DNA of 64,000 bases from an uncultured Gemmatimonadaceae bacterium (GTDB taxonomy: Bacteria > Gemmatimonadota > Gemmatimonadetes > Gemmatimonadales > GWC2-71-9), in contig CAZFHS010000008.1 of the NCBI GenBank assembly GCA_964518955.1, positions 1,017-65,016 on the forward strand, written 5' to 3'. Of this stretch, positions 17,493 through 61,834 are shown piece by piece. The stretch's first letter is position 1; each line of letters begins with the position of its first letter. The position numbers and the translations under genes are program-made. The notes beneath the pieces are model-generated. The model was given only the letters and a program-made list of their open reading frames with translations. It ran no database searches and had not been told where the DNA came from.

Positions 17493-17590
17493 TACATCCC
17501 CCCTTAGCATCGATGCTCACCTACTCCGCAAACAAAGCAGATCAGGTTGAACCAAACCCTACGTATCCCGCAAATACCCGTTTCGTCTGA

Positions 17591-17618: not shown

Positions 17619-19838
17619 GCTGTCCACAGGATCAGCGACTTCGGTGTGGATCCACTTCTCGAGGACTTCGACCAGAACCTGACGTTTGATTGGTTTTATC
17701 ACGTGGTCGTCCATGCCGGCTGCCAGGCACTTTTCTCTGTTGCCGTTCGTGATGTTCGCGGTCAAAGCAACGATCGGTGTACGGCATGCGGCCCCTTCTA
17801 ACTCTCGGATGGCCCGGGTAGCCTGGTATCCATCCATGGTCGGCATTTCGCAGTCCATCAGGACAATTTCGTAACAACCGTTTTGCGCCGATCGGACCGC
17901 TTCACTGCCATCGCAGGCGATATCCACGACATATCCGAGTTTCTCGAGCGTTCGTACCATCACCTTTTGATTGACCGGATTGTCCTCGGCCAGCAGTACT
18001 TTGCCCCGATACGATATTGAGGCCGCTGTGCCGGTATTCTCGCTCTCGTCGCTGTTGGCGTTGTCCGATCGCCGCTGCTTTGAGCCCAACGCAGCCACCA
18101 GACAACGCGACAGACGATCACGTCGAATCGGTTTAGGCAGACACGCAGCGAAGTCTGCATTAGTCGCGGCCATCGATTCACCACTTGCACCGATGGGTGC
18201 CATCAATACCAGACGTGCGTCCCTCAACGACGGATCCGCCAGGATCTTGCGACCGAATTCTTCGCCATTCGTCTGCTGTAGTGAGTTGTCCACCATCACA
18301 ACATCATAGGGGGCGGCTTTCTTGATGGCGCTGAGCAGCATATCGATCGCTACATCCGGCGCGTCGGCAACGTCCGCGGCCATATTCCACCCACAAAGAA
18401 GTGCCTGTAGCGATTGGCCACTCGCGGGATGATCCTCCACGATGAGTACCCGTTTCTTTGCGAATTCTCCCGTCTGCAAAGCGGGTATGGCCGCGGGTCC
18501 CTTGTGCCGCCCCATCCTGACGGTGAACCAGAAAGTGCTACCTTCGCCCAGCTGGCTCCTTACTCCAATCTCTCCAGCCATTGCCGCAACCAGGCGCTGT
18601 GAGATCACCAATCCGAGTCCGGTACCCCCGTATTTTCTGGTAGTAGAACTGTCGGCCTGCACGAAAGCCTGGAAGATTCTTTCTTGCGCATCCAAGCTCA
18701 TACCCACACCCGTGTCGCTCACCTCGCCCCGTATCGTCACAGATTCGGAATCGCTGTCTACCACATCGAACCGTGCGACTATCTCTCCGCTTTCCGTGAA
18801 CTTCACCGCGTTACCCATGAGATTCAAAACGATTTGCCGCAAGCGCCCAGGATCACCTACCAGTGTGTCCGGTATCGCCGGTGCAACACTGCTCACCAAT
18901 TCCAGCTGCTTTCCGATCGCTCGCGCAGCGATGAGGTCCGCCGTTTCTTCGACGGTCGTGCGCAGATCGAACGGCACTTCCTCGAGTTCGAATGTGCCGG
19001 CTTCGATCTTGGAGAAGTCGAGGATGTCATTAATGATGTCCAACAGCGACTCGCCAGATACGCGAATAGTTTCAACGAAGTCCCGCTGTTCTTCACTCAG
19101 GCCCGTTTCCCTGAGCAACTCGGTCATTCCGATCACGCCGTTCATCGGAGTGCGAATCTCGTGGCTCATCGTGGCGAGAAACTCACTCTTGGCGCGAGTA
19201 GCTGCCTGCGCTTCTTCATTCGAGCGTTCTAATTCGAGCGTTCGTTTGGCTACCATTCCCTCCAAGTTTTTCGCGTAGCCACTCAACGAACCATAGAGGG
19301 ACAGGTTCTCGATCGCATTTGCGCAGTCAGCAAGTACGATCGAGGTGAATTTCTGCGAGGCTTCGAGTACGTAGTTACGATCCTTTTGCACGACGCCCAT
19401 GAACATCCCGACCACCCTCGACCGGGTAGCCAAAACGTGCAACAGCACCCTACCATCCATCATCTTTCCTGGAACTATCACCGGCCGATTTTGTCTCACA
19501 GCCCACGCGAACGTTCCGGATTCGATGTGCCTCTCCAACTCATTGATAAGTCGCGGTGAGAGTTCCGTGGGATCGAGTTCGATCGGAGAAAAGTCGAAAG
19601 TATCTGCATCGGCAATCCAAAAGCCCACCGCTTCGAAGTCGACTATCGATCTGAGTGTCGACGCAGCAGAGGCACAGATCGCGGCTGGGTCTGCATGTTC
19701 TGTGAGGTCTCGACGTGACCGGAACAACGCGACCACGGAATCGAGACACTCCAGTAGCCATTTGTTCATCCGGGTGGCGCTAAACTCAGCAGACACCTCA
19801 GTTTCGGGTACCGGACGCGAGGCCGGGTTCGCTGTCAT
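17616..19838 (-). CDS. Hybrid histidine kinase: GAF-like - HisKA/HATPase - REC - REC
   Basis: H-box [14 protein letters not shown], HATPase ([15 protein letters not shown]). Two receiver domains (VVMVDNSL; [13 protein letters not shown]). ATGA overlap with the upstream HDOD gene. Confidence 0.85.
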
Positions 19839-20689
19839 TCGGATTCCTCGAGAATCGTACGAACCGCTGCCGCGTATTGTTGGTCGATGTCAGTCAGTAT
19901 GCCGGTGAGAACGTCTTCGGATAGACCTAGTCGCTCCCAAGCGAACCCGGAGAGAGGTGGCACCCACCGCTCACCGCTACTTCCCATCAGCATTGAGTGC
20001 GCCAGTATGTCTGCCAGATGAATGACTGCCACTTCGACTTGAAATCGTGTGGCACGTGCGGGCCTGTGATGATTTGACACGGGTTCTTGCAATGAAACCG
20101 GGAGATTCCAATTAGACAGCAGAGCCTCACCCACTGCTGCATGGTCGTATCCCATGACCACTTCCTCGGCCTCGTGCAGCATCATCTGTTCATCTCGCGC
20201 GTGCTCGATCGCGGTGCGCGCACCGTCTGGGTCGGACATGAATACCAGTAGCTTCCCGATATCGTGCAACAATCCCGCGACGAAGTGCCGCTCCACATTG
20301 GGCGCTCGCAACTCGGTAGCAAGTGACCTTGCGCATACCCCGCACCCAATGCTGTGCTGCCAAAAACTGGACATGTCTACCAGTTCTTGAGGTACATCCT
20401 TGAACATGTCCACAACCGATGTGGCGAGAGCTAGGTCGTGTATCTGCTGAGTGCCGACAACCGTCAACCCTTGCCTCACAGATTCGATCGTGGAGGGGAA
20501 ACCATACATGGCGCTGTTCACGAGACGCAGCAGTCTGGCCGTGAGGCCGATGTCTTCACTAATGACAGCTCCAACGTCATCTGCTGAGCTGTACGGGTCT
20601 TCCATCACCTCTACCAATCTCGTGTAGATCGCCGGTAGGGACGCGATATTCGTAGACTTACGAACGAGGTCATCGATGTTAGGCGCCAT
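19835..20689 (-). CDS. HDOD domain protein
   Basis: Full-length HDOD pattern ([56 protein letters not shown]). Confidence 0.85.
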
Positions 20690-21263: not shown

Positions 21264-22124
21264 ATGCTCGCCATCATCGGCGTGTTGGTCGTCATTGTGT
21301 CAGTACTCGGCGGGTTCAGCCTGGCGGGAGGGCACCTCGCAGCGCTATTCCACGTATCGGAGTTCGTCGTAATCGGTGGTACTGCGCTGGGAACGATTAT
21401 GATATCGACGCCGAGGTCCATTCTGAAGGAGCTGTTCGCCAAACTCACGGGGGTGATCAAGCAGACTCCCTTCTCGAAGGACCTCTACCTCGAAGCTTTG
21501 AAGATGATATTCGAGTTGTTCCAAATTGCTCGGCGCGACGGGCTCGTGGCAATCGAATCGCATATCGAGCGCCCAGCAGAGAGTGAGGTATTCAAGAAGT
21601 ACTCCGCAGTGTCGTCACGTCATCATGCAATCACATTTCTGTGTGATTCCCTCCGCCTCGTCCTCGTCGGGAGTGTGCCACCCCACGATTTGGAAGCATT
21701 GATGGATGCGGACATTGATGTTCATCACGAACAGGAAGCGCGGCCTGTGAACGTGCTGCAAAAGGTCGGCGACGCCCTCCCGGGAATTGGTATCGTTGCG
21801 GCCGTGTTGGGCATCGTCGTCACGATGGGCGCGATCGCCGGGCCCGTAGAACATATCGGCGAGAAGGTGGGCGCTGCTCTGACCGGCACATTCCTCGGTG
21901 TGCTGCTTGCTTATGGCTTCGCTACTCCCCTGTCTAGTAGCATGGAACACCAGAACGCCGAGGAAGCGCGTTTTCATCATTTCATCAAAGCCAGCGTAGT
22001 GGCATTCGCAAAGGGTTTCGCTCCAATAGTCGCAACGGAATTTGCCCGCAGAGCGATCTTTGCCGAGGTGCGTCCATCGTTCGAGGAAATGGAAACCGCC
22101 TGCAAGAGCACGAGGGGCAAGTAG
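21264..22124 (+). CDS. motA: Flagellar stator protein MotA (E. coli MotA-type)
   Basis: 286 aa, collinear with MotA (MLxxxGxLVV start, LPGIGIVAAVLGIV, GTFLGVLLAYGF, ERPSFEEME). Confidence 0.9.
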   Translation: MLAIIGVLVVIVSVLGGFSLAGGHLAALFHVSEFVVIGGTALGTIMISTPRSILKELFAKLTGVIKQTPFSKDLYLEALKMIFELFQIARRDGLVAIESHIERPAESEVFKKYSAVSSRHHAITFLCDSLRLVLVGSVPPHDLEALMDADIDVHHEQEARPVNVLQKVGDALPGIGIVAAVLGIVVTMGAIAGPVEHIGEKVGAALTGTFLGVLLAYGFATPLSSSMEHQNAEEARFHHFIKASVVAFAKGFAPIVATEFARRAIFAEVRPSFEEMETACKSTRGK

Positions 22125-22128
22125 CGAC

Positions 22129-22953
22129 ATGAACAAGGACCGTGAAGCCCCGCTACGAATCATCGTGCGCAAGAAGCGCAGCGATCATGGTGGGCATCAT
22201 GGTGGTGCCTGGAAAGTCGCCTTCGCCGACTTCATGACCGCAATGTTTGCACTGTTCCTCGTGCTCTGGCTCGTCAACCAGAGTTCCGAAGTACGGTCGT
22301 CGATAGCCGGTTACTTCGCCAATCCAATGGGATTCCCGGGTGAGGCTGGAAGCTCACTGTTGCCCGCGGACGGAACGGTGGCTTCAGATATCCGCCCGGT
22401 GCTGCTGGAAACATTCAGCCTGCGTCGGCTTCAACTGCGCGAGCTCGAGGCGAGGTTGCGCACCCGAATGGACGACCTCCCCGGATTGGAGTCAGTATCG
22501 GCAAACATCGAAATGGAGATGGTTGATGAGGGATTGAGGATTCAACTGCTCGAGGATTCGTCCGGCGTATTCTTCGAGACTGGAAGCAGTGATCCGAAGA
22601 CAGAAGGGCTGCAGGTGCTGCAAATCCTCGGGACAGAGCTGGCCCTGCTTCCAAACACCGTTGTCATTGAAGGTCACACAGACTCCCGCCAGTATGCTAT
22701 GGGTAACCGGTATACCAACTGGGAGCTGAGCGCCGACCGTGCTAACGCCGCTCGCCGTATTCTCACCGCAAACGGATTGGATGACTCGAAGATTGGCCAA
22801 ATTCGTGGTCTTGCAGACCGGGAGCTGCGGGACCCTGATAACCCCTTGTCCCCCGGCAACCGACGGGTCACCATAACAATTCAAGAGATCGGGCAAGGCC
22901 AACCTCCCGACTCCAGTGCTACCTCCATTCGAGTTCGTCGGGGCGCGCCATGA
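22129..22953 (+). CDS. motB: Flagellar stator protein MotB (OmpA-like C-terminus)
   Basis: HGGAWKVAFADFMTAMFALFLVLW carries the conserved TM Asp. OmpA-like peptidoglycan-binding domain (NWELSADRANAARR). Start at the ATG at 22129, 4 nt after the motA stop. Confidence 0.9.
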   Translation: MNKDREAPLRIIVRKKRSDHGGHHGGAWKVAFADFMTAMFALFLVLWLVNQSSEVRSSIAGYFANPMGFPGEAGSSLLPADGTVASDIRPVLLETFSLRRLQLRELEARLRTRMDDLPGLESVSANIEMEMVDEGLRIQLLEDSSGVFFETGSSDPKTEGLQVLQILGTELALLPNTVVIEGHTDSRQYAMGNRYTNWELSADRANAARRILTANGLDDSKIGQIRGLADRELRDPDNPLSPGNRRVTITIQEIGQGQPPDSSATSIRVRRGAP

Positions 22954-24122
22954 CACCAGCTGTAACGGTACTGTTGGCGTGCGACGATCCCTTCGCAACG
23001 CGAGGACTCTCGGAGGAGGTGCGTCAGATCCAGGATATGGATCTAACGGTGACAATCGACGGAGATGGTGTCCTTGACCTGGTGTTGGAGCTGTCCCCCG
23101 ATCTAATCATATGCGGAGCGACAGTGGGCGACGCCGACGGCCTCGAGATTTGCCGTTCCATTAAATCCGACGGCCGTATCGCGCATGCGCACTTAGTGTT
23201 CCTCGCTCCTCATGGTGATCGGGACGCAAAAGACGATGCGCTGCAGGCGGGCATTGACGCGTTCTTGACCGTGCCGCTGGACCCCGAAGACGTACGCGCG
23301 ATGCTCAAGCAGGCTGAACGGTTGGCATCCCAACGTGACCAGATTTTACAGAGCGATGTCCGACTCAAGACCGCGGGCCGCGACACCGAGCAGCTGGTGA
23401 CTTTTCTGGTCAGCCTCATTGAGGCCCAAATGTCCGGTGCCGCCAGCCGCGGCGAGACCCTGGCGAACCTCGCAGGCAAGATCGCCGACAGGTTCAAGAT
23501 ACCGTCTCATCTACTCCAGGACCTCGATACCGCCGCACGCCTACAAGAGATCGGAAAGATCGTTGACCCGGCGAATGCGCCGCACGTGGCGCTCGAACAT
23601 AGACCTGCATGCACCGGCCCCTACTACACAGTCGTATCGGCTGCCGTGCTGGCTCAGTTGGACCTGCTTTCTGGAGCGGCTGAGGTAGTCGGCGCAATGT
23701 GCGAGAATTGGGACGGCACAGGGCTGCCTGACAGACTCCGCAAAGGACAGATCCCGCTTCGATCTAGGATTCTCAGAGTCCTCGCCGATTTCCTCGACGA
23801 AATGCCCGACCCCGACCTGCCTAAGGCGGCAAACGTCCTTTCACAGCTTAAGGCCCAAGGCGGCACTCTATACGACCCACTTGTGATAGTGCACCTTCGC
23901 TCGGTGCTCGGAGATGAGGACGGTTCAGATATAGCTGACGGCAACACCCAGCTTACTGTGGCGGACCTGAAGGAGGGTATGGTGCTCGCCGAAGACATGT
24001 TCACGAGCTCAGGGGTGATGCTCCTGGCACGCGGAGCGGTGCTGACAGATGCTACGCTGGAAGTCATCAAGTACCGCAATCAGGTGGATCCTGTCGTTTC
24101 TGGAGTGTCGGTGTGTTGCTAA
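22950..24122 (+). CDS. Pseudo-receiver + degenerate HD-GYP-like domain + GM-x-LA-x-D module; translationally coupled to motB
   Basis: ATGA overlap with motB. REC fold with Gly at the acceptor position (DLIICGATVGDADG), Ala for T/S (LAPHG) and Val for Lys (LTVPLD). HD-GYP-like block has LQEIGK in place of LHDIGK and MCENWDGTGLP in place of HHERWDGSGYP. Confidence 0.75.
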   Translation: MTPAVTVLLACDDPFATRGLSEEVRQIQDMDLTVTIDGDGVLDLVLELSPDLIICGATVGDADGLEICRSIKSDGRIAHAHLVFLAPHGDRDAKDDALQAGIDAFLTVPLDPEDVRAMLKQAERLASQRDQILQSDVRLKTAGRDTEQLVTFLVSLIEAQMSGAASRGETLANLAGKIADRFKIPSHLLQDLDTAARLQEIGKIVDPANAPHVALEHRPACTGPYYTVVSAAVLAQLDLLSGAAEVVGAMCENWDGTGLPDRLRKGQIPLRSRILRVLADFLDEMPDPDLPKAANVLSQLKAQGGTLYDPLVIVHLRSVLGDEDGSDIADGNTQLTVADLKEGMVLAEDMFTSSGVMLLARGAVLTDATLEVIKYRNQVDPVVSGVSVCC

Positions 24123-32348: not shown

Positions 32349-33182
32349 TCAACTGTGCGTGGTTGACCCTGCAAAGAATTCGGGCTGCTCAGTTACGATG
32401 CCGCGCAACGTCTGCGCTGCCTTGCCTAGCGAACCCCACCGCCTCGAGCTGTCCGGACTCCTAGCTGCAGATTGCAGCTCGGGGTCGTCTGGCACGGCTC
32501 CGATGTAACTCAGTTGGAGGTTGAGGAATCGCTCACCCGCGTGGGCGAGTCTGTCGAAGGCGGCTCGCCCTTCGCTCTCGTCATTCACCTGGTTGACCAG
32601 TACGCCGATCCTCAAACCGGGCACTCGGGAGCTCACTATCTTGATCACGGCGTACGCATCTGCGAGCGCGGTTGGCTCGGCCATAGTGACAATCACCAGA
32701 CCTGACGCCCTGATCGTACAGAGCCTTACGACGTCCTCGATTGAGGGACCGGAATCAACGACAACCGAATCAAAGCCCTGATAGAGGTTGCTCAAGCTGT
32801 AGTGGAGTCTTGCCCGGTCGATCGAGTTGAGCGAGTACACCGACTCCACACCCGAGTCGCTGGGTAGGAGCCAGAGGTTTTCGCCCACAGCACTAATCAT
32901 GTCTTCGGGTCCAACCTCTCCCGCGAGCAACGCATCTAGGCGGCCGAATTTCGAGCAGCCTAGTAGGATGTGCAGGTTGCCGAGGTTCTGAGAGCCGTCC
33001 AACAACAACACTCGTCTCCCGCTGTCGCCCAGTACCGAACCCAGTGTTACCGCAAGGACCGACTTGCCGACACCACCTTTGCCGCTGGCGAGCACTACGG
33101 CCGCCGGCCCCGCGTCCCTGTCCGCAAGCGCCGAATCCATCAGCATGGCGCTATCGTTCGCTGATTGACCGATTTGCATCAT
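32349..33182 (-). CDS. flhG: MinD/ParA-type ATPase FlhG (FleN/YlxH)
   Basis: Deviant Walker A SGKGGVGKS. Located between flhF and fliA, with an ATGA overlap with flhF. Confidence 0.85.
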   Translation of the reverse strand: MMQIGQSANDSAMLMDSALADRDAGPAAVVLASGKGGVGKSVLAVTLGSVLGDSGRRVLLLDGSQNLGNLHILLGCSKFGRLDALLAGEVGPEDMISAVGENLWLLPSDSGVESVYSLNSIDRARLHYSLSNLYQGFDSVVVDSGPSIEDVVRLCTIRASGLVIVTMAEPTALADAYAVIKIVSSRVPGLRIGVLVNQVNDESEGRAAFDRLAHAGERFLNLQLSYIGAVPDDPELQSAARSPDSSRRWGSLGKAAQTLRGIVTEQPEFFAGSTTHS

Positions 33183-34030
33183 GCCGCCGTAGCTCCGTGC
33201 AACAGGATACCGTCCAGCGTGATCGAATCTGGAGCAACCTGTTGGGAAAGCGTGACAATGTCGTTCGGTACATCCTGGCCAAAGCAGACCCAGCGTACTG
33301 GTAGGTCGTTGTCGCGGGCGAGTGCCTCAACCGTTCGCTCGCCGGGATACTCATCCAACTTTGTAGCCAGAAGATGAGTCACTCCACGCCACTTGTATTC
33401 AGCGATTATCCGCGCGGCGTGTTCGGTCATCATCCCTTCGGGTAGTACGAGATGCACTTGTTGAGGGTCAATCCCTTTCAACAACTCCATAACTGCGGCA
33501 GCCTCTTGATTCTTCGCCGGGCCCCTTCCCGGAGTGTCGACCAGGATCACATCACATTTGCGCAGCCGTCGCTTTGCCTTGGCCAAATCCTTCAACTGGA
33601 ACACACGTTCCATGCGGATGCCTGCGGCATTCGCGTACTCCTTGAGTTGATCGGCGCCTCCCGCTCGATGAGTGTCGAGGGTCAGCAGCCCGACTTTCTG
33701 GGTTCCGAACGCCATCGGGTTGAGCGCGAGTTTGGCAATCGTCATTGTCTTTCCAGATCCCGTAGGCCCGACCAGAGCAATCACCTGCTGCACAGAACGC
33801 TGTTCGATGAGTGGATGCGGCTCGGTTGCAGCCTCTACCGGACGTGGGGCGGGAGTACTCACCAAAGCCAGGGCCGAGGCTTCATCGGCTGCTGTGAGCT
33901 CGAAGCGTGCGAGCCCATTTGGCAACCTCGTCCGATTGACATTCACTACAACGGCGTTGCTACCGAGTTCGGCTTGTGCTTGGGCAAGCAACGCTGGCAC
34001 GCGCGGTCCGGCATAAGTCTCAAGAGTCAT
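33179..34030 (-). CDS. flhF: SRP-type GTPase FlhF
   Basis: G1 GPTGSGKT, G3 DTPGR, G4 TKLDE. Start taken at the ATG at 34030; the longer ORF reaches 34084. Short N-terminal region. Confidence 0.85.
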   Translation of the reverse strand: MTLETYAGPRVPALLAQAQAELGSNAVVVNVNRTRLPNGLARFELTAADEASALALVSTPAPRPVEAATEPHPLIEQRSVQQVIALVGPTGSGKTMTIAKLALNPMAFGTQKVGLLTLDTHRAGGADQLKEYANAAGIRMERVFQLKDLAKAKRRLRKCDVILVDTPGRGPAKNQEAAAVMELLKGIDPQQVHLVLPEGMMTEHAARIIAEYKWRGVTHLLATKLDEYPGERTVEALARDNDLPVRWVCFGQDVPNDIVTLSQQVAPDSITLDGILLHGATAA

Positions 34031-36200
34031 TGTCGAGCTCCCATATGGCGAGGCTCTGAACCGGGGTCTGCGTGGGCAATTCACTCAGTGAAATCACTGG
34101 GAGTCGCGGCACTACCGGCTCAACCAAACGACGGATGCCCACCCGCAGACTGGGGGGCGCAATCAAAGGAACCTGTTCGCCTTCGCGCCTTGTCTGATCA
34201 GACAAGGCGGCAAGCGACCTGAGTAGTTCCGTTATCTCTTCGGGAGTCAGAATCCGCGAGCCGTCGGGATTAGACCGAGGGCTGAACAGCTGCATCAGGG
34301 CCGCTTCCAAGCGCGGGCCGACAGTGATGGCGGAAATCACTCCTGCGGCGTCCTTGAACATCTCGACGATCACCGGCGAGAGCGCGCGCCGAACATTCTC
34401 TGCGAGCATCTCGGGGTCTTTCGTCTGATCGGAGGCGTCTGACAGCGCTTCGAGTATGGTGACCAAATCCCGGACGGGCACACCTTCGCGAAGTAGACGT
34501 TGAAGCACGCGGTGTACCGTTCCCAGCGATAGTTTTGCAGGTACCACGTCCTCAATCAGCGCCGGGTGTGTTTCTTTGAGGCCATCGAGCAGTTCGCGCG
34601 TGTCCTGCCTGCTGATCAGTTCGGAAGCGTGTCCCCTGATCGTCTCCATGAGGTGAGTTGCCAACACTGTCTGCGGCTCGACCACATGGTAGCCTCCCGA
34701 CTCAGCCTCAACTCGCCGATCGGGAGTGATCCAAGTGGCGTCGATGCCGAAGCTCGGATCCTTGGTCGGCACGCCCTCGATGGAAACGGCATTCCCATCC
34801 ATATCGAGAGCCAAGAGATGGCGCGGCATAACCTCACCCGACGCAACTCGGACTCCGCGTAACCGGATCAGGTACTCTGTGGCTTTGAGCTGGATGTTGT
34901 CCCGTATGCGCGCTGAGGGAACAATGATGCCAAGTTCGAGCGCGAGTTGTTTGCGCATGATCCCCACTCGCTGAAGCAGGTCGCCCTCTTGGGCCTCATC
35001 CACTAGCGGCACAAGAGCGTATCCCACCTCTAGCTCGAGAGGCTCGACAGCCAGGAGGTCCTGCAGCGGAGTAGCGGGCTCACCAAGAGACTCAGATTGC
35101 TGCGCCACTTCTACTGCTTCTACTTCGGCTTCAACACGCTTCCGCCGGCCCACTCGATACGCGATCGTGGCCGAAAGGACAGCGAGGAGAAGAAACGGAA
35201 TGGCCGGCAATCCCGGAACGGCTGCGAACACAGCGAGGATTCCCGCAGCCATCCAGATAGTTCGCGTATTGCCGGTCAGCTGCGAAGCGATGGCTGGAGC
35301 CATCGTGAGGCCTCTCGAACCGTATGTCACGAGAATGCCCGCGGACGTACTGACAACCAAGGCGGGAATTTGAGTCACCAGCCCGTCACCAACCGAGAGT
35401 GACGAATAGGTCGCCAAAGCATCCGGCGCACTCATGCCTCTCTGGAGCATCCCGATGGTGAAACCGCCGATCAGGTTGATCGCCGTTATGACCAATCCGG
35501 CAATAGCGTCGCCACGAACGAACTTCGCGGCACCATCCATGGAGCCGTAGAAGTCTGCGTATTGGTTTATTTCTTCGCGGCGTCGACGTGCTTCAGATTC
35601 ATCTATGAGGCCTGCACTCAGGTCGGCGTCGATACTCATCTGCCTACCCGGCATGGCATCGAGTGTGAACCGCGCGGCCACCTCAGCAATACGCCCAGCA
35701 CCCTTGGTGATCACCAAGAAGTTGATTACCACCAGAATCAGGAAGATCACGAGGCCAACCACGTAGTTGCCCCCGATCACGAATCCACCGAAGGCCCTGA
35801 TCACTTCGCCCGCCTGCCCCGTGCTCAGAATCAGGCGTGTGCTGCTCACGTTCAGGCCTAGCCGCAATAGCGTGATCAGGAGCAGTAGACTCGGGAAGAT
35901 GCTGAATTCGAGAGGATTGCGGGCCGACAGCGTAACAAGCAGCACTACTATCGAAATCGCAAAGCTGAGCGCCAACAGTGCATCGAGCACGAATGGGCGC
36001 AGCGGCACTACCAGAAGCGCCACAATTACTACTACTCCCAAAGCCAAATACGTCTCAGCCGATGCCGACACGAGTCGGTTTACGACCGCTTCGCTCTTGG
36101 GCACGTGAGCGGGCGTGGTCCCGGCATTCAACGGGGATCCGCTGTTTCCCACGAATGGCGGCGCCGGTGATGCAGCGATCGGTGCACTCGGAGCGGTCAA
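34020..36200 (-). CDS. flhA: Flagellar export apparatus protein FlhA
   Basis: Collinear with FlhA (FLVITKGAGRIAEVAARFTLDAMPGRQMSIDADL). TTG start preceded by AAGGAGG. Confidence 0.95.
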   Translation of the reverse strand: MTAPSAPIAASPAPPFVGNSGSPLNAGTTPAHVPKSEAVVNRLVSASAETYLALGVVVIVALLVVPLRPFVLDALLALSFAISIVVLLVTLSARNPLEFSIFPSLLLLITLLRLGLNVSSTRLILSTGQAGEVIRAFGGFVIGGNYVVGLVIFLILVVINFLVITKGAGRIAEVAARFTLDAMPGRQMSIDADLSAGLIDESEARRRREEINQYADFYGSMDGAAKFVRGDAIAGLVITAINLIGGFTIGMLQRGMSAPDALATYSSLSVGDGLVTQIPALVVSTSAGILVTYGSRGLTMAPAIASQLTGNTRTIWMAAGILAVFAAVPGLPAIPFLLLAVLSATIAYRVGRRKRVEAEVEAVEVAQQSESLGEPATPLQDLLAVEPLELEVGYALVPLVDEAQEGDLLQRVGIMRKQLALELGIIVPSARIRDNIQLKATEYLIRLRGVRVASGEVMPRHLLALDMDGNAVSIEGVPTKDPSFGIDATWITPDRRVEAESGGYHVVEPQTVLATHLMETIRGHASELISRQDTRELLDGLKETHPALIEDVVPAKLSLGTVHRVLQRLLREGVPVRDLVTILEALSDASDQTKDPEMLAENVRRALSPVIVEMFKDAAGVISAITVGPRLEAALMQLFSPRSNPDGSRILTPEEITELLRSLAALSDQTRREGEQVPLIAPPSLRVGIRRLVEPVVPRLPVISLSELPTQTPVQSLAIWELDNDS

Positions 36201-39500: not shown

Positions 39501-39818
39501 CTACTCCTTTGCCCCGCCGTTGCGGTCTGAGAGGATTTCGGTGATCTGGATGCCAAAGTGGTCGTCGACGACAACGACCTCACCGGCTGCCAGCTTCCGA
39601 TCGCTCACGTAGATGTCTACTGGTTCACCAACCGTACGGTCCAGTTGTACTACAGAGCCAGGTTGGAGCTCCAACACATCCTGGAGCATCATGCTCGTGC
39701 GTCCGAATTCGATTACAACCGGTACCGATACATCTAGCAGTGCATCGAGCGCACCACGGCCGGTCTTGGTTGCAGTGTTTTCGGTCGTTGGTGCGTCAGT
39801 CTTCTTTGGGTTAGTCAC
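39501..39818 (-). CDS. fliN: Flagellar C-ring protein FliN
   Basis: SpoA domain (LLDVSVPVVIEFGRTSMMLQDVLELQPGSVVQLD ... FGIQITEI). Confidence 0.88.
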   Translation of the reverse strand: MTNPKKTDAPTTENTATKTGRGALDALLDVSVPVVIEFGRTSMMLQDVLELQPGSVVQLDRTVGEPVDIYVSDRKLAAGEVVVVDDHFGIQITEILSDRNGGAKE

Positions 39819-40798
39819 AGGATTCTCCCGCGCGTGGTACTTGCTGGTTTTTCTATTGGGCTGCCAGGAACTGCCTCCGTGAGCTGCACGCCCACATGCC
39901 GGCGAACCTGCCCTAGTGTGCCCACAAATCTCGGGTGTTCGTTGACGTGAACTTCGATCGGCACTTCCACATGCTGTTTGGTCTGAATCACCTGGCCTAC
40001 GGATAGGTCTGCTATCGTCCGGGCAGCTAGTGATAGAGGGGCCAATCGCGCAGAAAGCGACATGCGAGCGTGTTTGAGATCTCCCTCGATCGCAGACCTA
40101 TACTCGCGCGCCTCGATTCGATCGGAGTATTGATGCTTTCCACCGCAAAGATCGTCTTGCAGAAAGCTCTCGAGTGCTTCCATGGGGAGCGCTATGGAAA
40201 GAATGCTGCTGTGTGACTCTATGTTCACCGCAAGGCGGGTGACTAAGGCCTCGCCGCGATCTTTGGTACGTAGGTCTTCAGGCGAAGAAGCAAACGTCGT
40301 TATCTCTGGTGTCAGCTCGATGTGTTCGCTCCACCCGGTCCTCAATGCTTCCAATACCCGTTCGGCTATTCCACTGACTACAGACTGTTCGAGTTCGCTG
40401 AGCGGCCTTCCCTGTTGCGAGGATTCGCCCGAACCACCGAAAAGACGGTCGATGAGGAAGAACGCGCAGTCGGTACCCATGTCGACGGCGCCTTCAGCAC
40501 CAGAAGCGTCCGCTCTGAACACGAAGGCGGCGCACGGATTCACCAGCAGGTCTGTGAAATCGGCAAACGGCATGTTCTCCGTGTTTTCAACCGTGACCTG
40601 AGCCGGTACTCTAGTCAGAGATGACAGCTTTCTTTCCACGGAACTTGCCATCCGATGAGTCACCATCTTGAAAAGGATCTGCTTTTCGTTGGTGATTCTG
40701 GTCGGCCGCACAAAATCGAACGACTGAACGTCAGGCTCTTTCGGCTCGCCTTGGGCTCGCTTCACGGACAGGTTTTTTCTTTCAGTTTTGACGGCCAT
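39815..40798 (-). CDS. fliM: Flagellar C-ring protein FliM (no N-terminal CheY-P docking motif)
   Basis: Collinear with the FliM middle and C-terminal domains. Start at the ATG at 40798, preceded by AGGTGG. The N-terminus MAVKTERKNLSVKRAQGEPKEPD lacks an LSQxEIDALL-type peptide. Confidence 0.85.
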   Translation of the reverse strand: MAVKTERKNLSVKRAQGEPKEPDVQSFDFVRPTRITNEKQILFKMVTHRMASSVERKLSSLTRVPAQVTVENTENMPFADFTDLLVNPCAAFVFRADASGAEGAVDMGTDCAFFLIDRLFGGSGESSQQGRPLSELEQSVVSGIAERVLEALRTGWSEHIELTPEITTFASSPEDLRTKDRGEALVTRLAVNIESHSSILSIALPMEALESFLQDDLCGGKHQYSDRIEAREYRSAIEGDLKHARMSLSARLAPLSLAARTIADLSVGQVIQTKQHVEVPIEVHVNEHPRFVGTLGQVRRHVGVQLTEAVPGSPIEKPASTTRGRIL

Positions 40799-40809
40799 TT
40801 TGCCACCAC

Positions 40810-41370
40810 CTATTGAATGACAAACCTTGGGAGATACACGCGCACCCACTCCATCCCACCACACAACGGCTTCACAACCTCCAACAGATCCGTTTTCAAA
40901 TCGTCTCGTGCGCCTGGATAGGTGAGATCATCGAGTGAGCGTGCCTCCAAGGTCGCGCTGACGACGTCGCGAATCTGTATCTCGCGTTCGTGCAGGTGTT
41001 CGAGTGCCTCTTCATCCGGAACCTCAAACGCAACTGACACCATGAGAAACCGTTCCCCTCGCGAGCCAGCAGGATTTACAAGGAGGTTTTCGAGTTCGAG
41101 GAATTTTCCGGTGACTTCTTCGTGGGCTGCATCGTGCGTTTCCGCGTCCGCCTCAGCGTCCGCCTCAGCACCTGCTTCCGTGTCGGTTTCGTGTTCCTGT
41201 GCGGCCATTTTGGCTACGAGCTTCGGTCCGATGACAAATCCTCCCGAGGCTCCACCAAGGACCACCGCGATCATCACGACACTCATGAGCAGCGGCCTCT
41301 TCTTCGCCGGCGCTCCGGTATTTTCGTCTCCGGATTTGCTCTGAGCCTGGTTCTTTGTTTCGCTCGTCAT
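40810..41370 (-). CDS. fliL: Flagellar basal-body-associated protein FliL
   Basis: Single TM; LENLLVNPAGSRGERFLMVSVAFEV ... VYLPRFVIQ is typical of FliL. Acidic low-complexity linker. Confidence 0.75.
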   Translation of the reverse strand: MTSETKNQAQSKSGDENTGAPAKKRPLLMSVVMIAVVLGGASGGFVIGPKLVAKMAAQEHETDTEAGAEADAEADAETHDAAHEEVTGKFLELENLLVNPAGSRGERFLMVSVAFEVPDEEALEHLHEREIQIRDVVSATLEARSLDDLTYPGARDDLKTDLLEVVKPLCGGMEWVRVYLPRFVIQ

Positions 41371-47649: not shown

Positions 47650-48340
47650 GGCCTAACCGTTCGTAGAGCGTTCGGAGGGCTTCATCGGTTCGTCCGTCAA
47701 CCACCCTCAGAGGTGTTTCGAGCAAGAAACTGCCGCGCTCGAGCGAAGCGTCCTCAATCCACTGCACGTTTAGCGGGCGGCCCGCAATCTCCAGCTGATC
47801 TAGTTTCCCGTGTAATACTTCCAGATCCGTGGGATTCAACCGTACTTCGAGCATCAAATCATGGGGAACCAGGTCGAGGGCGCGCTCGATCAGATCGCTG
47901 ACGATGGTCGGGTCTGCCTTCACCTCGCGCTGAATGAGCTGCCTGGCAACCGCCATAGCGAGTGCGTGAAGTCCACGTTCGAGATCTAGTCGAAAATCGG
48001 CGTGTGTTTGTTCGAGGGCTTCAGTCAAACCGCTCAGCGTTTCCAACGCCGGCAGCATCTTCTCGTAGCCCTCGGCGACCCCTTGCTCTCTGCCATCCGC
48101 GAAGCCGCTTTCGTAGCTCAGTTGAATTTCATCTGGCCCAACGGCGGTTTCCGGTTGCTCGAGTGTCGCCACCAGCTCGGGTTCTTGGCTAAATTCCCGG
48201 AGCTCGTGCGTCTCGTAAGAACACGAAGTTTCCTCTCTTTCACCGGCGATCTCCAAGAACGGAAGATCGGTGAGAGATGGGCTCTCCTGGGTCGGCCACA
48301 TCGGGCTGAACTCAGACGATGACATCGTCATCTCCGCCAC
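47642..48340 (-). CDS. fliH: Flagellar export protein FliH
   Basis: Position between fliG and fliI; C-terminal FliH pattern (RGSFLLETPLRVVDGRTDEALRTL). Confidence 0.75.
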   Translation of the reverse strand: MAEMTMSSSEFSPMWPTQESPSLTDLPFLEIAGEREETSCSYETHELREFSQEPELVATLEQPETAVGPDEIQLSYESGFADGREQGVAEGYEKMLPALETLSGLTEALEQTHADFRLDLERGLHALAMAVARQLIQREVKADPTIVSDLIERALDLVPHDLMLEVRLNPTDLEVLHGKLDQLEIAGRPLNVQWIEDASLERGSFLLETPLRVVDGRTDEALRTLYERLGHD

Positions 48341-49346
48341 GGCCCTGAATGATCACTTCACCTGCATCTTCCAGTCGCCGCACGGACTCGATGATCCGTG
48401 CATGAGCAGCTTCGACTTCGCGCGCTTTGACCGGGCCGAGGAATTCCATCTCCTCCTCGAGTGCCGATGCAGCCCGTTCGGACATGTTTTTCATTATGTG
48501 CTGCTTCATTTCATCGCTGGCTACCTTCAGAGCCAGTGCCAGCTCTTTGCCCTCTATCTCCCGTAGCAGGCGCTGCATGCTTCTATCGTCCAAGAGCAGC
48601 AGATCTTCGAACACGAACATGAGACGACGGATCTCGTCTGCTAGCTCAGCGTTGCGGCCTGCGATCTCCTCCATCAGTTTTGACTCGATTTCCTGATCTG
48701 CCTGATTCAATACCTTTGCAACAGCTGCCGGACCGCCGGTCAATGTCATCTCCTGAGACAACGACACATCGCCCTTTTGCGCTAAGCACGCCTCCACTGA
48801 ATCGAGCATCTCGGGAGAGACCTGCGTCATATTGGCTACTCGAAACAGCACATCTGCCGCCAACTCGGATTCCATCGATTCGATGACGGTGAGAGCCTGT
48901 TTCACATCAAGATGTGCCAATACGAGAGCCACCGTTTGCGGATGCTCGCCGCGCAACAGGTTTGAGAGGACCTCCGGCGCCGCACCCTTGAGCTGATTCA
49001 GACTGGATGCTTCGAGGTCGTCTTCAATCTTCTCAACAATGTTTTTGGCTTTGTTTTCACCAAAGGTGTGCTGAAGGACTTGTTTGGCGTATTCCACGCC
49101 ACCGCCAGCCACAGACTCGACCGAGCGTGATACATCACCGAACTCGCCCATAACAGACTCGACTACTTCCGGCGGCACTGCTTGGATCGATGCTATCTCC
49201 CTGGTTACCAGTTCCACCTCTGTTGGAGAAAGCGACTGCAGCACCTGAGCGGCCTGCTCGGCACCCAACGCCATACATAGGACGGCGGCCTTCCGCACGC
49301 CGTTCATTGACGGCGCGGCTTGGGTTTCTGTGGCTTGCTCAGGCAT
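48312..49346 (-). CDS. fliG: Flagellar rotor protein FliG
   Basis: Collinear with FliG (RKAAVLCMALG, MFVFEDLLLLDDRSMQRLLREI, MSERAASALEEEME). Start at the ATG at 49346 (TGATG overlap with fliF); the longer ORF reaches 49367. Confidence 0.92.
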   Translation of the reverse strand: MPEQATETQAAPSMNGVRKAAVLCMALGAEQAAQVLQSLSPTEVELVTREIASIQAVPPEVVESVMGEFGDVSRSVESVAGGGVEYAKQVLQHTFGENKAKNIVEKIEDDLEASSLNQLKGAAPEVLSNLLRGEHPQTVALVLAHLDVKQALTVIESMESELAADVLFRVANMTQVSPEMLDSVEACLAQKGDVSLSQEMTLTGGPAAVAKVLNQADQEIESKLMEEIAGRNAELADEIRRLMFVFEDLLLLDDRSMQRLLREIEGKELALALKVASDEMKQHIMKNMSERAASALEEEMEFLGPVKAREVEAAHARIIESVRRLEDAGEVIIQGRGGDDDVIV

Positions 49347-50854
49347 CAGGTTGTACCACCCAGCCACGCGCGGACTACCTGTGCGGCTAGTTCAGGACGT
49401 TCTGTGGCCTTGCTCAGGTGGTTTTGTAGTTGCGCAGCTGGCACGGCCTCCTCACCTCCCTGCAAATCCGGTTCGTCGCCGGCAGGCAGGTCGCCTTGTT
49501 GTCTTGCACCGGCAACTGCGGGTGGTAGCACTGGCGTCGTCTTGAGTACGCTCCAAGCGAGTGCGATTAGAGCTGCGATCGCGGCCAGGCCTAGTATCGG
49601 GCGACTTAGCCGCTGTATCATGTCGATGACGTCGAAAGATTCTTCGGGCGCGCCAGTCATACCGATAGCTGGCCCATCACCACCTGAGAGCGGCATGAAT
49701 GGGATCGCGGTCACAGTCAACCGATCGCCGCGCGCAGCATCGATACCGATGGCGTCCCGAACCATTGCTTCGACACTCGCGATGCGATTCGCAGTCCCGC
49801 CCTCAGCAAGTTCTCCCGATTCGAGAGCGTTCTCATCGACCAGTACCGCCACGGTCAGTCGTGTCAAACCGCCAACCGCGCCAACGATTCGCTCGAGCCT
49901 TCGAGAATTCTGGTATGAGTTGCTTATGATCTGCTGGGAGCCGGCTCCGGCGGCAGCCGTACCGGTACCAGTCTCGCTGCGCTGCTCCGTCTGGACTACC
50001 TGCCCATCAGGATCAAATGACTCAATCGTACGGTCTACCTGTTCGAAGTTGAGTTGTGCAGCGACCTGAACTCGTGCTCGTCCCAATCCAACTACGGTGG
50101 AGAGAAGGTTCTCTACCTTTGAAACCAGGTGCTCTTCAACACTTTGCTGTATGTCCAGTTGGCGCGACGTGAGGCCACTCACCGAGGCATTGGCCGCCGG
50201 TACAGATAGCACGTGCCCTGCATCGTCCAGGACGGCGACGTCGTCGCTGGTGAGCTGCTCAACACTGTTCGCAACGATGTAGGTGATCCCGCGAACGGTC
50301 TCTGGATTGAGTGAGGATCCCTGGGCGAGTTGAACTACGACCGAAGCTCCAACCTGTTGTTCCTGACTCCTGAAAGAGGTCGTTTTCGGAAGAACCAAGT
50401 GAACCTGTGCGCGCTGGACACCCCTCAATCCGCCAATAGTTCTGGCGAGTTCACCCTCCAGCGCCCGTTGGTAGGTCACTCGCTGCGTGAAGTCGGTCAT
50501 GCCCCAGGAAGGCTGATCGAACAACTCCAGGCCTGGTCGGCCACCCACCGAGAGCCCGTCTCGGGCAAGCGTTACCCTCGCTCGCGCAAGCTGCTCGGAC
50601 GGCACAAGGACTCCCGATCCGCCACTAGCCAAACGGTAGCTGATGTCGGACTGAGAGAGATGTTCGGTGATCGTCCCGACCTCTCCGAGTTCGAGGCCTT
50701 CATAGAGAGGCACGTAGTCCGGTTCGCTGGCCCAACTGCCCACCATCCATATGCCCACCAGCGCAACAGCCGCCACCCCAAGTACCACGAATCGCTTTGT
50801 GGCCGGCATCTTACGGACTGCATCGAGCGGATTAGCTACAAACTGTTCGCTCAT
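49346..50854 (-). CDS. fliF: Flagellar MS-ring protein FliF
   Basis: N-terminal TM; LARARVTLARDGL, YQRALEGELARTI; C-terminal TM plus FliG-binding tail. Confidence 0.9.
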   Translation of the reverse strand: MSEQFVANPLDAVRKMPATKRFVVLGVAAVALVGIWMVGSWASEPDYVPLYEGLELGEVGTITEHLSQSDISYRLASGGSGVLVPSEQLARARVTLARDGLSVGGRPGLELFDQPSWGMTDFTQRVTYQRALEGELARTIGGLRGVQRAQVHLVLPKTTSFRSQEQQVGASVVVQLAQGSSLNPETVRGITYIVANSVEQLTSDDVAVLDDAGHVLSVPAANASVSGLTSRQLDIQQSVEEHLVSKVENLLSTVVGLGRARVQVAAQLNFEQVDRTIESFDPDGQVVQTEQRSETGTGTAAAGAGSQQIISNSYQNSRRLERIVGAVGGLTRLTVAVLVDENALESGELAEGGTANRIASVEAMVRDAIGIDAARGDRLTVTAIPFMPLSGGDGPAIGMTGAPEESFDVIDMIQRLSRPILGLAAIAALIALAWSVLKTTPVLPPAVAGARQQGDLPAGDEPDLQGGEEAVPAAQLQNHLSKATERPELAAQVVRAWLGGTT

Positions 50855-57144: not shown

Positions 57145-58200
57145 TTACACCATTGCCAGGACTTCGACGGGCGAACTCTGCCCGCGACGCTTGGCTTTCG
57201 TTTTTGTGGGCTGTTTCACCAAAATCCTGTATGAGGGCCGTTTCGATTTTTCGCGATAAAGGGCCTGGTCTGCTTTCCTCAACAGATCCTCGAGGCATTC
57301 GTCGGAACCCGTCACTACCGTAGTACCAATGCTGAGCGAAAGATCATATTTGAGCTCACCCGATTCATTCGCTCGGACGAGGCAATCCTCGATCTTCTGC
57401 TTCAGCGCTGCCTTTCCGAAATCGTCGATGTCGAATGCGAGCGCGACGAACTCGTCTCCGCCAAACCGTGCCACGATATCCGATTCCCTGAAACAGGACT
57501 TGAGCAATTCGGCGGTTTTGGCAATTGCGCGGTCTCCCTCGTCGTGACCGTATGTATCGTTTATCTCTTTGAGTCCGTCTAGGTCGGCACTCAATATCAG
57601 CGAACGTTTGCGCTGACGCCGCGTCATCCGCACGTGCGAATCAGCCAGCGTCCAGAACCCCCGCCGATTCAGCAATCCCGTCAACGGGTCCGTCATCGAA
57701 AGGTCTCGCAACTGCAGCACCTGACGGTGACGATCGACTGCGCACCTGAGTGAGTGTGCCAGCGAATGAGGCGTCACCTGTTCCCTGATCAGATAGTCTT
57801 GAGCACCACGGCGTACAGCCTCCTGTGCCCGCGGTTCATCCTCCATTCCGACAACGACCACGATCGGAATCCGTTGTGCCAGTGTAGAAAGCATCGAGAA
57901 CGAATCCAGCCCTGTAACGTCGACCAGACTAAGATCCATCATAACCGCATCGAACTTTTCACGACCGAGTCGATCGACACCTGCGCTGACTCGATCCACG
58001 GTTTCTATTCTGAGGTCACCGTAACAGGAGATTTGTATCATTTGCCTGAAGAAAACCGCGTCGGAATCGTTGGCTGACATGATCAGTATCCGCGAGCACG
58101 GCGTTTGTTCGTCGACGAAAGTCGCGAACGGTATCGAATCTCTTAGCGCTGCCTGGCCTGTGGATAGCATCTGTACACTCTGCTCCAATCTCTCGTTCAC
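57145..58200 (-). CDS. Response regulator diguanylate cyclase (REC - GGDEF)
   Basis: REC (AVMMDLSL), coiled linker, GGDEF domain with an intact active site (RFGGDEF). RxxD I-site lies 5 residues upstream (RESD). Confidence 0.88.
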   Translation of the reverse strand: MNERLEQSVQMLSTGQAALRDSIPFATFVDEQTPCSRILIMSANDSDAVFFRQMIQISCYGDLRIETVDRVSAGVDRLGREKFDAVMMDLSLVDVTGLDSFSMLSTLAQRIPIVVVVGMEDEPRAQEAVRRGAQDYLIREQVTPHSLAHSLRCAVDRHRQVLQLRDLSMTDPLTGLLNRRGFWTLADSHVRMTRRQRKRSLILSADLDGLKEINDTYGHDEGDRAIAKTAELLKSCFRESDIVARFGGDEFVALAFDIDDFGKAALKQKIEDCLVRANESGELKYDLSLSIGTTVVTGSDECLEDLLRKADQALYREKSKRPSYRILVKQPTKTKAKRRGQSSPVEVLAMV

Positions 58201-58371: not shown

Positions 58372-59571
58372 TCAGTCAGCGGGTTCGAACAAGTCTCGTA
58401 TCGACTCCCTCCACTCTTCCAGGCGGTCCGCCACACCAACCGAGGCCAAGTAGTCATGGTTCAAGAGAGCAATGGCCCCATTTTCGGTCTGGGGTTCCAA
58501 TTCCCTGACGAGCACGTCCGCGATGTGAACGGCTGTTGCTGAATCCAGCTCCGGAGACGCTAAACCGTCAGGAGCATGGTGATGCGCTACTGCCTCCACT
58601 ACCGCACGCGGCAGTCCCCAAATACCTAGCAAATACCCACCGATTTCCGCGTGCGTGGTGTCCAGTTCTTCCTGTTCGACCGCATACATTGGTCGCCGCT
58701 CGGAACCCGCCCTTTGAACGACCGTCTTCAGTATTTCGGGCAATTTCGCCGCGAGCACTAGCTTGCCGACGTCATGCAGCATGCCGGCCATGAATGAATC
58801 ATCCGCTTCCGCTTTGCCGCGCAGTATCGCAGCTGACGCACGGGCAACGCACAAAGAATGTTGTTGCTCTACGGCCGCTGAGAAACCCGGAATATCCCCG
58901 TTCTGTTTGAACGCCTCGAACACCCCGGCCGTGAGCGCCATGCTCTTGATGACGTTGAACCCGAGGCGCGCGACAGCCTCATCGATACTCGCAGTATCGA
59001 CCTGGGCTCCGAAAAACGCCGAACGCACCATCTGAAGTACCTTCGCACTCATCCCCGGATCCTCTTTGAGGATCTCGGCCACTTCAACCAACGAGGTCTC
59101 CTCACGCGCAAGCAGTTCCACTAGCCGTGTGTACACCTTAGGCGCACTCGGAAGCGAGTCGATCCCGCCGACTAGGCTCTGCAGCTTTGTGTCAGCCATC
59201 AGCTGCCTCAGACCGCACAGCCGGTCTAGCGTGGCTTCGAGGAGCACGACGTCGAACGGCTTGGCCAGGAACTGGTGGGCAACCTTGGCTGCTCGGAGTG
59301 CGGCGCTTCGATCGCTTTGTCCGGACAGAATGATACGAACCACACCAGGGTCGATATCGCGCACTCGCTCGAGCAGTCCAGCTCCGTCCATGCCGGGCAT
59401 TCGCATGTCCGAGACGACGATATCGAAGCTCGCGGTTTCCATAACCTGAAGAGCTGCCGTGCCGCAATCAGCGAACGCCAGCTCCCAATCGGGCCTGCGC
59501 CGTGTGAGCAATCTTCTAATACCGTCCCTAAGGAATGGTTCGTCGTCGACGAACAACAGCCTCGTACTCAT
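58372..59571 (-). CDS. Response regulator with HDOD output domain (REC - HDOD)
   Basis: REC with intact D/S/K (VVSDMRMPGMDG, LAKP). HDOD (LPSAPKVYTRLVELL, AGMLHDVGKL, AHHHAP). ATGA overlap with the upstream kinase. Confidence 0.85.
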   Translation of the reverse strand: MSTRLLFVDDEPFLRDGIRRLLTRRRPDWELAFADCGTAALQVMETASFDIVVSDMRMPGMDGAGLLERVRDIDPGVVRIILSGQSDRSAALRAAKVAHQFLAKPFDVVLLEATLDRLCGLRQLMADTKLQSLVGGIDSLPSAPKVYTRLVELLAREETSLVEVAEILKEDPGMSAKVLQMVRSAFFGAQVDTASIDEAVARLGFNVIKSMALTAGVFEAFKQNGDIPGFSAAVEQQHSLCVARASAAILRGKAEADDSFMAGMLHDVGKLVLAAKLPEILKTVVQRAGSERRPMYAVEQEELDTTHAEIGGYLLGIWGLPRAVVEAVAHHHAPDGLASPELDSATAVHIADVLVRELEPQTENGAIALLNHDYLASVGVADRLEEWRESIRDLFEPAD

Positions 59572-61057: not shown

Positions 61058-61834
61058 GTGGACAAGGGAACTCTGTTCGGCGTTGTAGCTGGCTTGCTGC
61101 TCGTGGGAGGCTCCATAGCCATGGGCTCAGGGGTCCAGATTTTCTTGAGCCCTTCGTCGCTGCTTATCGTGTTCGGTGGTACTCTTGCGGCTACGGCAAT
61201 AGCGTTCCCGACCAAGGAGCTCAAGCTGATCCCCCCGGTAGTACGGCGTGTATTCAAGGATCCCAAGTCGGAAATGCTCGCGATCATGCAATTTTTGATG
61301 GAGAGCCGGAAGCTCGCCAGCAAAGAAGGTCCCCTCGCTCTGGAAAAGATGGCTCAGGAAGCTCCATCAGACCCTCTGAAGAAGGGGCTGACGCTGATTG
61401 CGGACGGTACCGACGGAACGGCCCTCAGGGAAATCCTCACTACCGACCAGATGACTGTCGAAGACCACCACAGAACCGGGCAACGCATCTTCAACGAGAT
61501 GGGCAAATTTGCGCCCGCGTTCGGGATGATTGGAACACTAATCGGGTTGGTGCAGATGTTGGCCACGCTCGACGACCCTGCCTCCATCGGTCCGTCAATG
61601 GCAGTAGCGCTCCTGACAACCTTCTACGGGGCGCTCCTCGCAAACATGTTTTTCTTGCCGATGGTCACGAAACTAGACCGTCGGATCAAAATCGAAGATC
61701 AGCAGATCGAACTCATGATCGTCGGGATGATGTCTATCAACCACAATGACAGCCTGGCCATCATGCGCGAGAAGATGAAGGCATATTTGGCCGAACAACC
61801 CGAAAACTTCGACGAGCTCCTGAGCGGTAGATGA
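61058..61834 (+). CDS. pomA: Second stator A subunit, PomA/MotC/MotP-type
   Basis: 258 aa, collinear with PomA-type proteins (MDxxTLxG start, FAPAFGMIGTLIGLVQML, DDPASIGPSMAVALLTTFYGALLANMFFLP). Ion specificity cannot be inferred from the sequence. Confidence 0.88.
   Translation: MDKGTLFGVVAGLLLVGGSIAMGSGVQIFLSPSSLLIVFGGTLAATAIAFPTKELKLIPPVVRRVFKDPKSEMLAIMQFLMESRKLASKEGPLALEKMAQEAPSDPLKKGLTLIADGTDGTALREILTTDQMTVEDHHRTGQRIFNEMGKFAPAFGMIGTLIGLVQMLATLDDPASIGPSMAVALLTTFYGALLANMFFLPMVTKLDRRIKIEDQQIELMIVGMMSINHNDSLAIMREKMKAYLAEQPENFDELLSGR

Follow-up and report, generated by a model that had tools for sequence, protein, structure and literature searches.

A FliM without the N-terminal docking peptide in a flagellar gene cluster of an uncultured Gemmatimonadaceae bacterium

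The N-terminal peptide of the rotor protein FliM, with its LSQxEIDALL-type motif (the EIDAL motif), connects chemotaxis signalling to the flagellar motor; polar flagellates also use it to link, through FlhG, the assembly of the C-ring to the control of flagellar number. How is a motor controlled if this peptide is missing? The question is raised by a 64,000-nucleotide stretch of DNA from an uncultured Gemmatimonadaceae bacterium (GenBank assembly GCA_964518955.1, contig CAZFHS010000008.1, positions 1,017–65,016; the whole stretch is called the window below), which carries a flagellar gene cluster with a FliM that lacks the canonical tether for both phosphorylated CheY (CheY-P) and FlhG. A first-pass annotation, made from the sequence alone, had noticed the missing peptide and the absence of chemotaxis genes around it, and had suggested that motor output may be governed by inputs other than CheY.

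FliM and its missing docking peptide

The fliM gene occupies positions 39815..40798 on the minus strand and encodes 327 amino acids. Its ATG start at 40798, the one preferred in the first-pass annotation, is preceded by GGTGGTGG and sits 11 nucleotides past the stop codon of fliL (40810..41370, minus strand; PF03748), the gene directly upstream. Five independent contigs of JGI and ENA assemblies encode an identical 327-residue FliM beginning at the same ATG; the window corresponds to most of a JGI contig of 136,943 bp. We consider the start to be fixed, because the fliL stop lies so close upstream and the independent assemblies yield identical gene calls. The longest open reading frame (ORF; 39815–40864, minus strand) begins at GTG 40864 and overlaps the final part of fliL through its first 22 codons, and, as had been stated, the extension adds no docking motif; for one homologue (P0001) the gene caller chose a longer start, giving 344 amino acids.

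The product of 39815–40798 is a genuine FliM, as seen from its domains, its FliG-contact motif, its matches to solved structures, and the gene order fliL-fliM-fliN. The middle, CheC-like domain (residues 27–213; 40160..40720, minus strand) scores 99.6 bits against PF02154 (cut-off 27), covers profile positions 1–189 of 192, and matches the solved FliM middle domains 4FQ0, 4GC8, and 2HP7; these middle domains, together with the full-length Salmonella FliM (8UMD), are the best solved-structure matches of the protein. The GGxG motif that contacts FliG is intact, reading LFGGSG (40427..40444, minus strand) in the context DRLFGGSGES, with F120, G121, G122, and G124 invariant over 16 FliMs (alignment A1). 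The C-terminal SpoA domain (FliMN_C, residues 241–310; 39869..40078, minus strand) scores 50.7 bits against PF01052 (cut-off 23.8). On the FliM equivalog model of NCBIfam, TIGR01397, the protein reaches 164.4 bits and stays under the cut-off of 219.6, because of its divergence and the absent N-terminus. With E. coli FliM as a tblastn query, the window FliM is not detected at E ≤ 1, and profile methods are required to find it.

The leader preceding these domains (residues 1–26, MAVKTERKNLSVKRAQGEPKEPDVQS; 40721..40798, minus strand) is hydrophilic, basic, and unconserved, and contains no EIDAL motif. Recognisable FliM homology was said to begin past the N-terminal region, and an alignment with a family model had been proposed as a check; here, the first position of PF02154 aligns with residue 27, position 24 of TIGR01397 aligns with residue 15, so that the motif-bearing model positions 1–23 are unmatched, and residue 28 of Salmonella FliM (8UMD) aligns with residue 17. 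Motif-bearing relatives do align across the leader stretch (alignment A1). On a scoring matrix of 12 columns, derived from 64 real instances of the docking motif, the window FliM reaches −11.8 bits, compared to a median of −13.5 bits and a 99th percentile of 4.1 bits for shuffled N-termini; motif-bearing FliMs score 4–36 bits (31.3 for E. coli FliM, NC_000913).

The peptide is not encoded elsewhere in the window either. No regular-expression match to an LSQxEIDALL-type motif occurs in any of the six frames of the whole 64 kb, and a six-frame scan with the matrix yields a sole match above 6 bits, ILTPEEITELLR (11.2 bits; 34218–34253), which is internal to FlhA, has a score equal to the maximum of shuffled sequences, and was rejected as a docking motif. 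An upstream start or a split gene as the source of the motif was likewise rejected, since the extension overlaps fliL and, like every frame of the window, is free of any EIDAL-like peptide, in agreement with the earlier remark that no such start is seen in frame. The downstream neighbour FliN (39501..39818, minus strand; 105 amino acids) has an N-terminal extension of only 23 residues, without an EIDAL motif and without a CheC/FliY domain; its segment ALDALLDV, considered as a relocated motif, was rejected as such, since it belongs to the SpoA domain, of which it forms the conserved beginning (residues 24–98 match TIGR02480). The canonical CheY-P/FlhG tether is thus absent from the window FliM, and the claim with which the first-pass annotation began stands on profile coordinates, matrix scores, and six-frame scans alike. 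Compared to canonical FliMs (E. coli/Salmonella, T. maritima, and H. pylori; 8UMD, 2HP7, and 4FQ0), the window protein has the same CheC-like domain, GGxG motif, SpoA domain, and placement between fliL and fliN, but it is devoid of the N-terminal LSQxEIDALL peptide.

Loss across the clade and in the FlhF/FlhG circuit

Homologues of the window FliM are rare, with only 20 found among 5.8 billion proteins. Those with 43–99% identity (P0001–P0003, P0005, P0006, P0008–P0011, and P0013; P0002, the same as locus L001, is among these motif-less clade members) all lack the motif and have variable, hydrophilic leaders, while those with 36–40% identity (P0014–P0018) begin with L[TS]QKDID[AS]LL. When 1.84 billion cluster representatives are searched with a profile, the motif-less clade turns out to be tiny, about three clusters at 50% identity, with scores dropping from 525 to 357 bits beyond it. 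A neighbour-joining tree of 228 FliM cores unites the motif-less sequences in a single long-stemmed clade, nested among motif-bearing FliMs of metagenome-assembled genomes (MAGs) labelled Gemmatimonadota and Candidatus Eisenbacteria; the nearest relative in the genome database is labelled Gemmatimonadaceae. The clade alignment (A2) has 56 invariant columns, every one of them from F29 onward; therefore, constraint acts on the core but not on the leader. No replacement motif conserved among the clade leaders emerged from this alignment. By the tree and the alignments, the motif was lost once, in the ancestor of this small clade, its absence is a stable clade trait, and the loss arose independently inside a Gemmatimonadota-type FliM lineage.

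Outside the window clade, 37 of about 138 other full-length nearest cluster representatives (~27%) are motif-negative. In at least 17 of the 37, no fewer than 25 residues precede the YDFxRP anchor, and truncated gene calls hence cannot explain them. With the whole in-frame upstream region read, no motif is found in the Gemmatimonadota MAG loci L016, L017, and L057, and a degenerate one in L035/L036 and L042; the other motif-negatives are a subset of P0041–P0167. These FliMs are scattered in the tree, which implies several independent losses. Loss of the docking peptide is thus not unique to the window clade and recurs in related lineages. FliM without a docking peptide is a known kind of variation, of which the window clade is a further variant. 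Since motif-less FliMs are frequent among the Gemmatimonadota-type proteins, trait inference from metagenomes should not conclude that motility is chemotactic from the annotation of a FliM, or even of a full set of flagellar genes.

Other relatives show the opposite trend: in L002–L005 and L007 (Candidatus Eisenbacteria and one related MAG), two tandem EIDAL-type motifs, e.g., LNQKDVDSLLKRTSSGGKVTADSLTQREIDAILQK, sit just upstream of the FliM match.

In systems of the FlhF/FlhG type, the EIDAL peptide is also the docking site of FlhG, and its deletion in Shewanella leads to hyperflagellation and delocalisation of FlhG (bioRxiv 10.1101/2022.04.21.489128; PMC12826062). FlhG itself has an N-terminal enhancer helix with the motif DQAxxLR, the Gln of which co-catalyses GTP hydrolysis by FlhF (PMC12826062). 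The window encodes both proteins after flhA: FlhF (33179..34084, minus strand), a GTPase of the signal recognition particle type identified by Pfam, with GPTGSGKT, DTPG, and TKLD present, and FlhG (32349..33182, minus strand), a MinD-like ATPase, also with a Pfam match, carrying the Walker A sequence KGGVGKS. The enhancer helix of this FlhG is reduced to a remnant, NDSAMLMD (33135..33158, minus strand), which aligns with xDQAAxLR of sister lineages, the co-catalytic Gln being replaced by Ser and the Arg being lost. DQAxxLR is found in 11 of the 12 nearest sister FlhGs (49–55% identity) and is degenerate in all three sampled lineages of the clade (NDSAMLMD in the window, DDSAVVMD in L084, and no match in L088).

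The clade has thus lost both flagellum-specific interaction motifs, EIDAL on FliM and DQAxxLR on FlhG. A peptide shared by two partners has been erased, which implies that neither CheY-P nor FlhG uses it here. The window resembles the circuit that controls flagellar number and placement through FlhF, FlhG, and the EIDAL peptide of FliM (Shewanella, Vibrio, and Pseudomonas; FliY in Bacillus) in having flhF and flhG after flhA and a MinD-type Walker A motif, and differs from it in lacking EIDAL on FliM and DQAxxLR on FlhG, both of which the nearest sister lineages keep.

Possible control of the motor

The reading that we favour on balance, with some caution, starts from the erasure of the docking peptide in the clade ancestor, with which both the high-affinity CheY-P site and the FlhG tether were lost. 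The motor would then most likely not switch under classical CheY-P control, the FlhF–FlhG–FliM assembly checkpoint would have been rewired, and motor output would most plausibly be set at the stator–rotor level by proteins of cyclic diguanylate (c-di-GMP) signalling and phosphorelay encoded in the cluster. Candidate inputs are two MotAB sets, a REC protein with a degenerate HD-GYP domain that is translationally coupled to motB1, HDOD proteins, a PilZ hybrid kinase, an HPt protein together with a REC protein, and a REC-GGDEF protein. The earlier suggestion that non-CheY inputs govern the motor is a plausible and reasonable one. There is a precedent in CheY-independent motors regulated by a PilZ protein that is encoded beside motAB (PMC8203827, PMC8042155), and the control proposed here would be analogous to that of the non-chemotactic, c-di-GMP-braked lateral motors of gamma-proteobacteria. 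A further-reaching proposal, which we put forward tentatively, is that a small, deep-branching clade related to the Gemmatimonadota may have dismantled both regulatory couplings of the rotor together, the tether on FliM and the FlhF-activating helix of FlhG, and possess a chemotaxis-independent primary flagellum, with c-di-GMP and phosphorelay inputs to two alternative stator sets determining its speed or engagement.

The first stator set, motA1-motB1, is at 21264..22953 (plus strand). The start of the next gene, coding for the REC and degenerate HD-GYP protein (22950..24122, plus strand; PF00072 and PF13487), overlaps the motB1 stop; the protein has no HD dipeptide, GLP replaces GYP, and it is a candidate stator-linked regulator. 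A gene for a kinase-like HATPase protein also follows this set. The second set, motA2-motB2 (61058..62700, plus strand), is divergent, with 24% identity to the first in MotA and 23% in MotB; it resembles the MotAB encoded beside fliM in Fibrobacterota and Firmicutes loci (41–47% in MotA).

Most of the remaining candidates form a run of minus-strand genes, all assigned by Pfam: a REC-HisKA-HATPase-REC-PilZ hybrid kinase (12057..13991) with the PilZ motifs RxxxR and DxSxxG intact as RRTQR and DISLSG, an HDOD-GAF-histidine kinase (14022..16211), a stand-alone HPt phosphotransfer protein (16520..16906; PF01627, 45 bits), a REC protein with a cysteine-rich tail (16920..17510), a GAF-HisKA-HATPase-REC-REC hybrid kinase (17616..19838), and a stand-alone HDOD protein (19835..20689; PF08668, 217 bits). 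A REC-GGDEF diguanylate cyclase with an intact GGDEF motif (57145..58200) and a REC-HDOD protein (58372..59571) are encoded farther along the same strand. This agrees with the richness in HDOD, PilZ, GGDEF, and degenerate HD-GYP proteins noted in the first-pass annotation, with three, one, one, and one of them, respectively. These signalling genes lie more than 15 kb from fliM; the loci of relatives used for comparison span ±10 kb around it.

The REC protein at 16920–17510 is the one small, nearly stand-alone receiver of the window, and its four-cysteine tail had been correctly described: it reads LPICSYCRKIRD...W...THGICPQC, a zinc-ribbon-like CxxC...CPxC arrangement without a match in Pfam or among solved structures (PDB). 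We rejected this protein as a CheY, since it is closer to receivers of the OmpR/PhoB type (its best NCBIfam receiver matches are of the PhoB/OmpR type, at 90 bits, compared to 63 bits on a CheY model), has the Cys-rich tail, and is encoded beside the HPt protein and a hybrid kinase. The adjoining genes for the HPt protein and the GAF hybrid kinase suggest a phosphorelay.

Chemotaxis genes are absent from the window, as had been reported for CheA, CheW, CheB, CheR, and methyl-accepting chemotaxis proteins (MCPs). Pfam scans of every ORF and gap ORF in the 64 kb reveal no CheA, CheW, CheR, CheB methylesterase domain, CheZ, or MCP, and in a tblastn search of the window with E. coli CheA, CheW, CheR, CheB, CheZ, CheY, Tar, and Tap only generic receiver and HATPase domains are matched. 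None are present in the 18 kb past position 64000 either, which extends the contiguous region to about 82 kb. In 80 related loci, each covering ±10 kb around fliM and in the great majority of cases carrying an intact motif, CheB at the edge of the Fibrobacteria locus L066 is the single che match. The absence of che genes from the window carries little weight, because the fliM neighbourhoods of motif-bearing relatives are also che-free; in this part of the tree, che genes are not kept beside fliM. The earlier statement of a che-free neighbourhood therefore holds for the 64 kb and does not extend to the genome as a whole. A literature search on flagella and chemotaxis in Gemmatimonadota gave nothing specific.

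Several points weigh against control without CheY. Motif-bearing relatives, too, are without che genes near fliM, and it is entirely possible that a che operon lies outside the ~82 kb viewed. In model organisms, CheY-P has secondary contacts of lower affinity on the middle domain of FliM and on FliN; such contacts might be enough in principle, and an adaptor is another possibility. FliG (48312..49367, minus strand; TIGR00207, 316 bits) keeps the EHPQ and MFXF (here MFVF) hinge motifs, and hence the rotor shows no visible degeneration as a switch. The joint loss in FliM and FlhG is not a statistical association, because it represents a single evolutionary event. Finally, we infer the links of c-di-GMP and the phosphorelay to the motor from the gene content of the window.

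These points are taken up by an alternative that we consider possible but doubtful, namely that chemotaxis is intact and encoded elsewhere, that CheY-P reaches the switch without a tether, through the middle domain of FliM, FliN, or an adaptor, and that the loss of EIDAL mainly reflects a dismantled link between FlhG and FliM. The che-free neighbourhoods of motif-bearing relatives fit this alternative, as the phylum would then keep its che genes elsewhere, and so do the retained switch motifs of FliG, the degenerate enhancer motif in FlhG of the same clade, indicating a changed FlhF/FlhG module, and the recurrent loss of the motif in related lineages, which suggests that it is readily tolerated. 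However, the peptide is the high-affinity CheY-P site in every studied system, and a working CheY–FliM pathway should preserve it despite any change in FlhG; besides, no replacement motif is found in the leader, in FliN, or anywhere in the 64 kb, and the sole near-stand-alone REC protein is more similar to OmpR/PhoB than to CheY and has a Cys-rich tail.

It is improbable that the cluster is a secondary, non-chemotactic flagellar system of the Shewanella/Vibrio lateral type, with a primary system and a motif-bearing FliM elsewhere in the genome. The window shares with such systems, represented by S. putrefaciens FliM2 and the Vibrio lateral FliM, a motor off chemotaxis (inferred here), a divergent C-ring, and, as candidates only, c-di-GMP effectors beside motAB; lateral motors have indeed lost chemotactic control and are regulated by such effectors (PMC8203827, PMC8042155), and the two stator sets of the window would be in keeping with a second system. 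The cluster comes from a different phylum, and it nevertheless looks primary, because it is complete and includes regulators of the primary type: flhF, flhG, fliA, a REC-bearing sigma-54 activator, two flagellins, FlbT/FlaF, and an FlgM-like protein. The lateral gene set of V. alginolyticus lacks flhF and flhG, both of which the window has; in addition, the motif-bearing P0016 and P0018 came from other samples, which is weak evidence. S. putrefaciens FliM2 itself is not known to carry EIDAL or to bind FlhG.

A mis-called start, a frameshift, or an assembly error that hides the motif, for which the longer start taken by some gene callers (P0001) might speak, is effectively refuted by the motif-free extension overlapping the fliL end, the identical protein in five independent JGI/ENA contigs, nine divergent clade members that are all motif-less, and the lack of the motif in any frame of the window.

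The window can also be compared with the reduced switch of the Aquifex aeolicus type: both are flagellates with a reduced switch, but here FliM is retained and conserved and only the docking peptide is gone. A clade with a complete flagellum of the FlhF/FlhG type, in which the peptide is erased and the FlhG enhancer degraded, offers a natural experiment on how a motor works and is placed without either coupling. If the same logic applies to the recurrent losses of EIDAL, primary flagella independent of CheY would be common in the phylum without having been recognised. Until che genes have been looked for in whole genomes, the finding is of modest practical value.

Other features of the cluster

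The gene order fliF...fliL-fliM-fliN-fliOP-fliQ-fliR-flhB-flhA-flhF-flhG-fliA is kept in clade members. FliO and FliP are fused into one protein of 371 amino acids (38380–39495; PF04347 and PF00813), and the fusion occurs in every clade member examined. Positions 55807–56584 and 56750–57061, past the two flagellin genes, hold the genes for FlbT and FlaF, which regulate the synthesis of flagellin and are best known from alpha-proteobacteria, and after them a weak FlgM-like ORF.

Three further small proteins are encoded among the flagellar and signalling genes. One of 185 amino acids (45294–45848), encoded between fliJ and fliK, is weakly similar to MgtE_N/FliG (E = 2e-4) and is conserved at this place in clade members; another of 143 amino acids (31137–31568), directly after fliA, has no family match and shows 58% identity to its counterpart in L083/L084; and an ORF of 130 amino acids (20679–21071), between the HDOD gene and motA1, is also without a family match.

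Past motAB2 (63019–64000 and beyond; L094/L095/L136), there are genes for a fusion of a K+ channel with TrkA and REC, for an ATPase of the type II secretion family with an MshEN domain, which is a c-di-GMP-binding module, and for a fourth HDOD protein; these are followed by housekeeping genes.

Some products called by JGI (L089 and L092) are shorter than those of ENA and the window, FlhA having 667 compared to 726 amino acids and FliK 452 compared to 486, which indicates that versions of the same contig differ slightly in assembly or gene calling.

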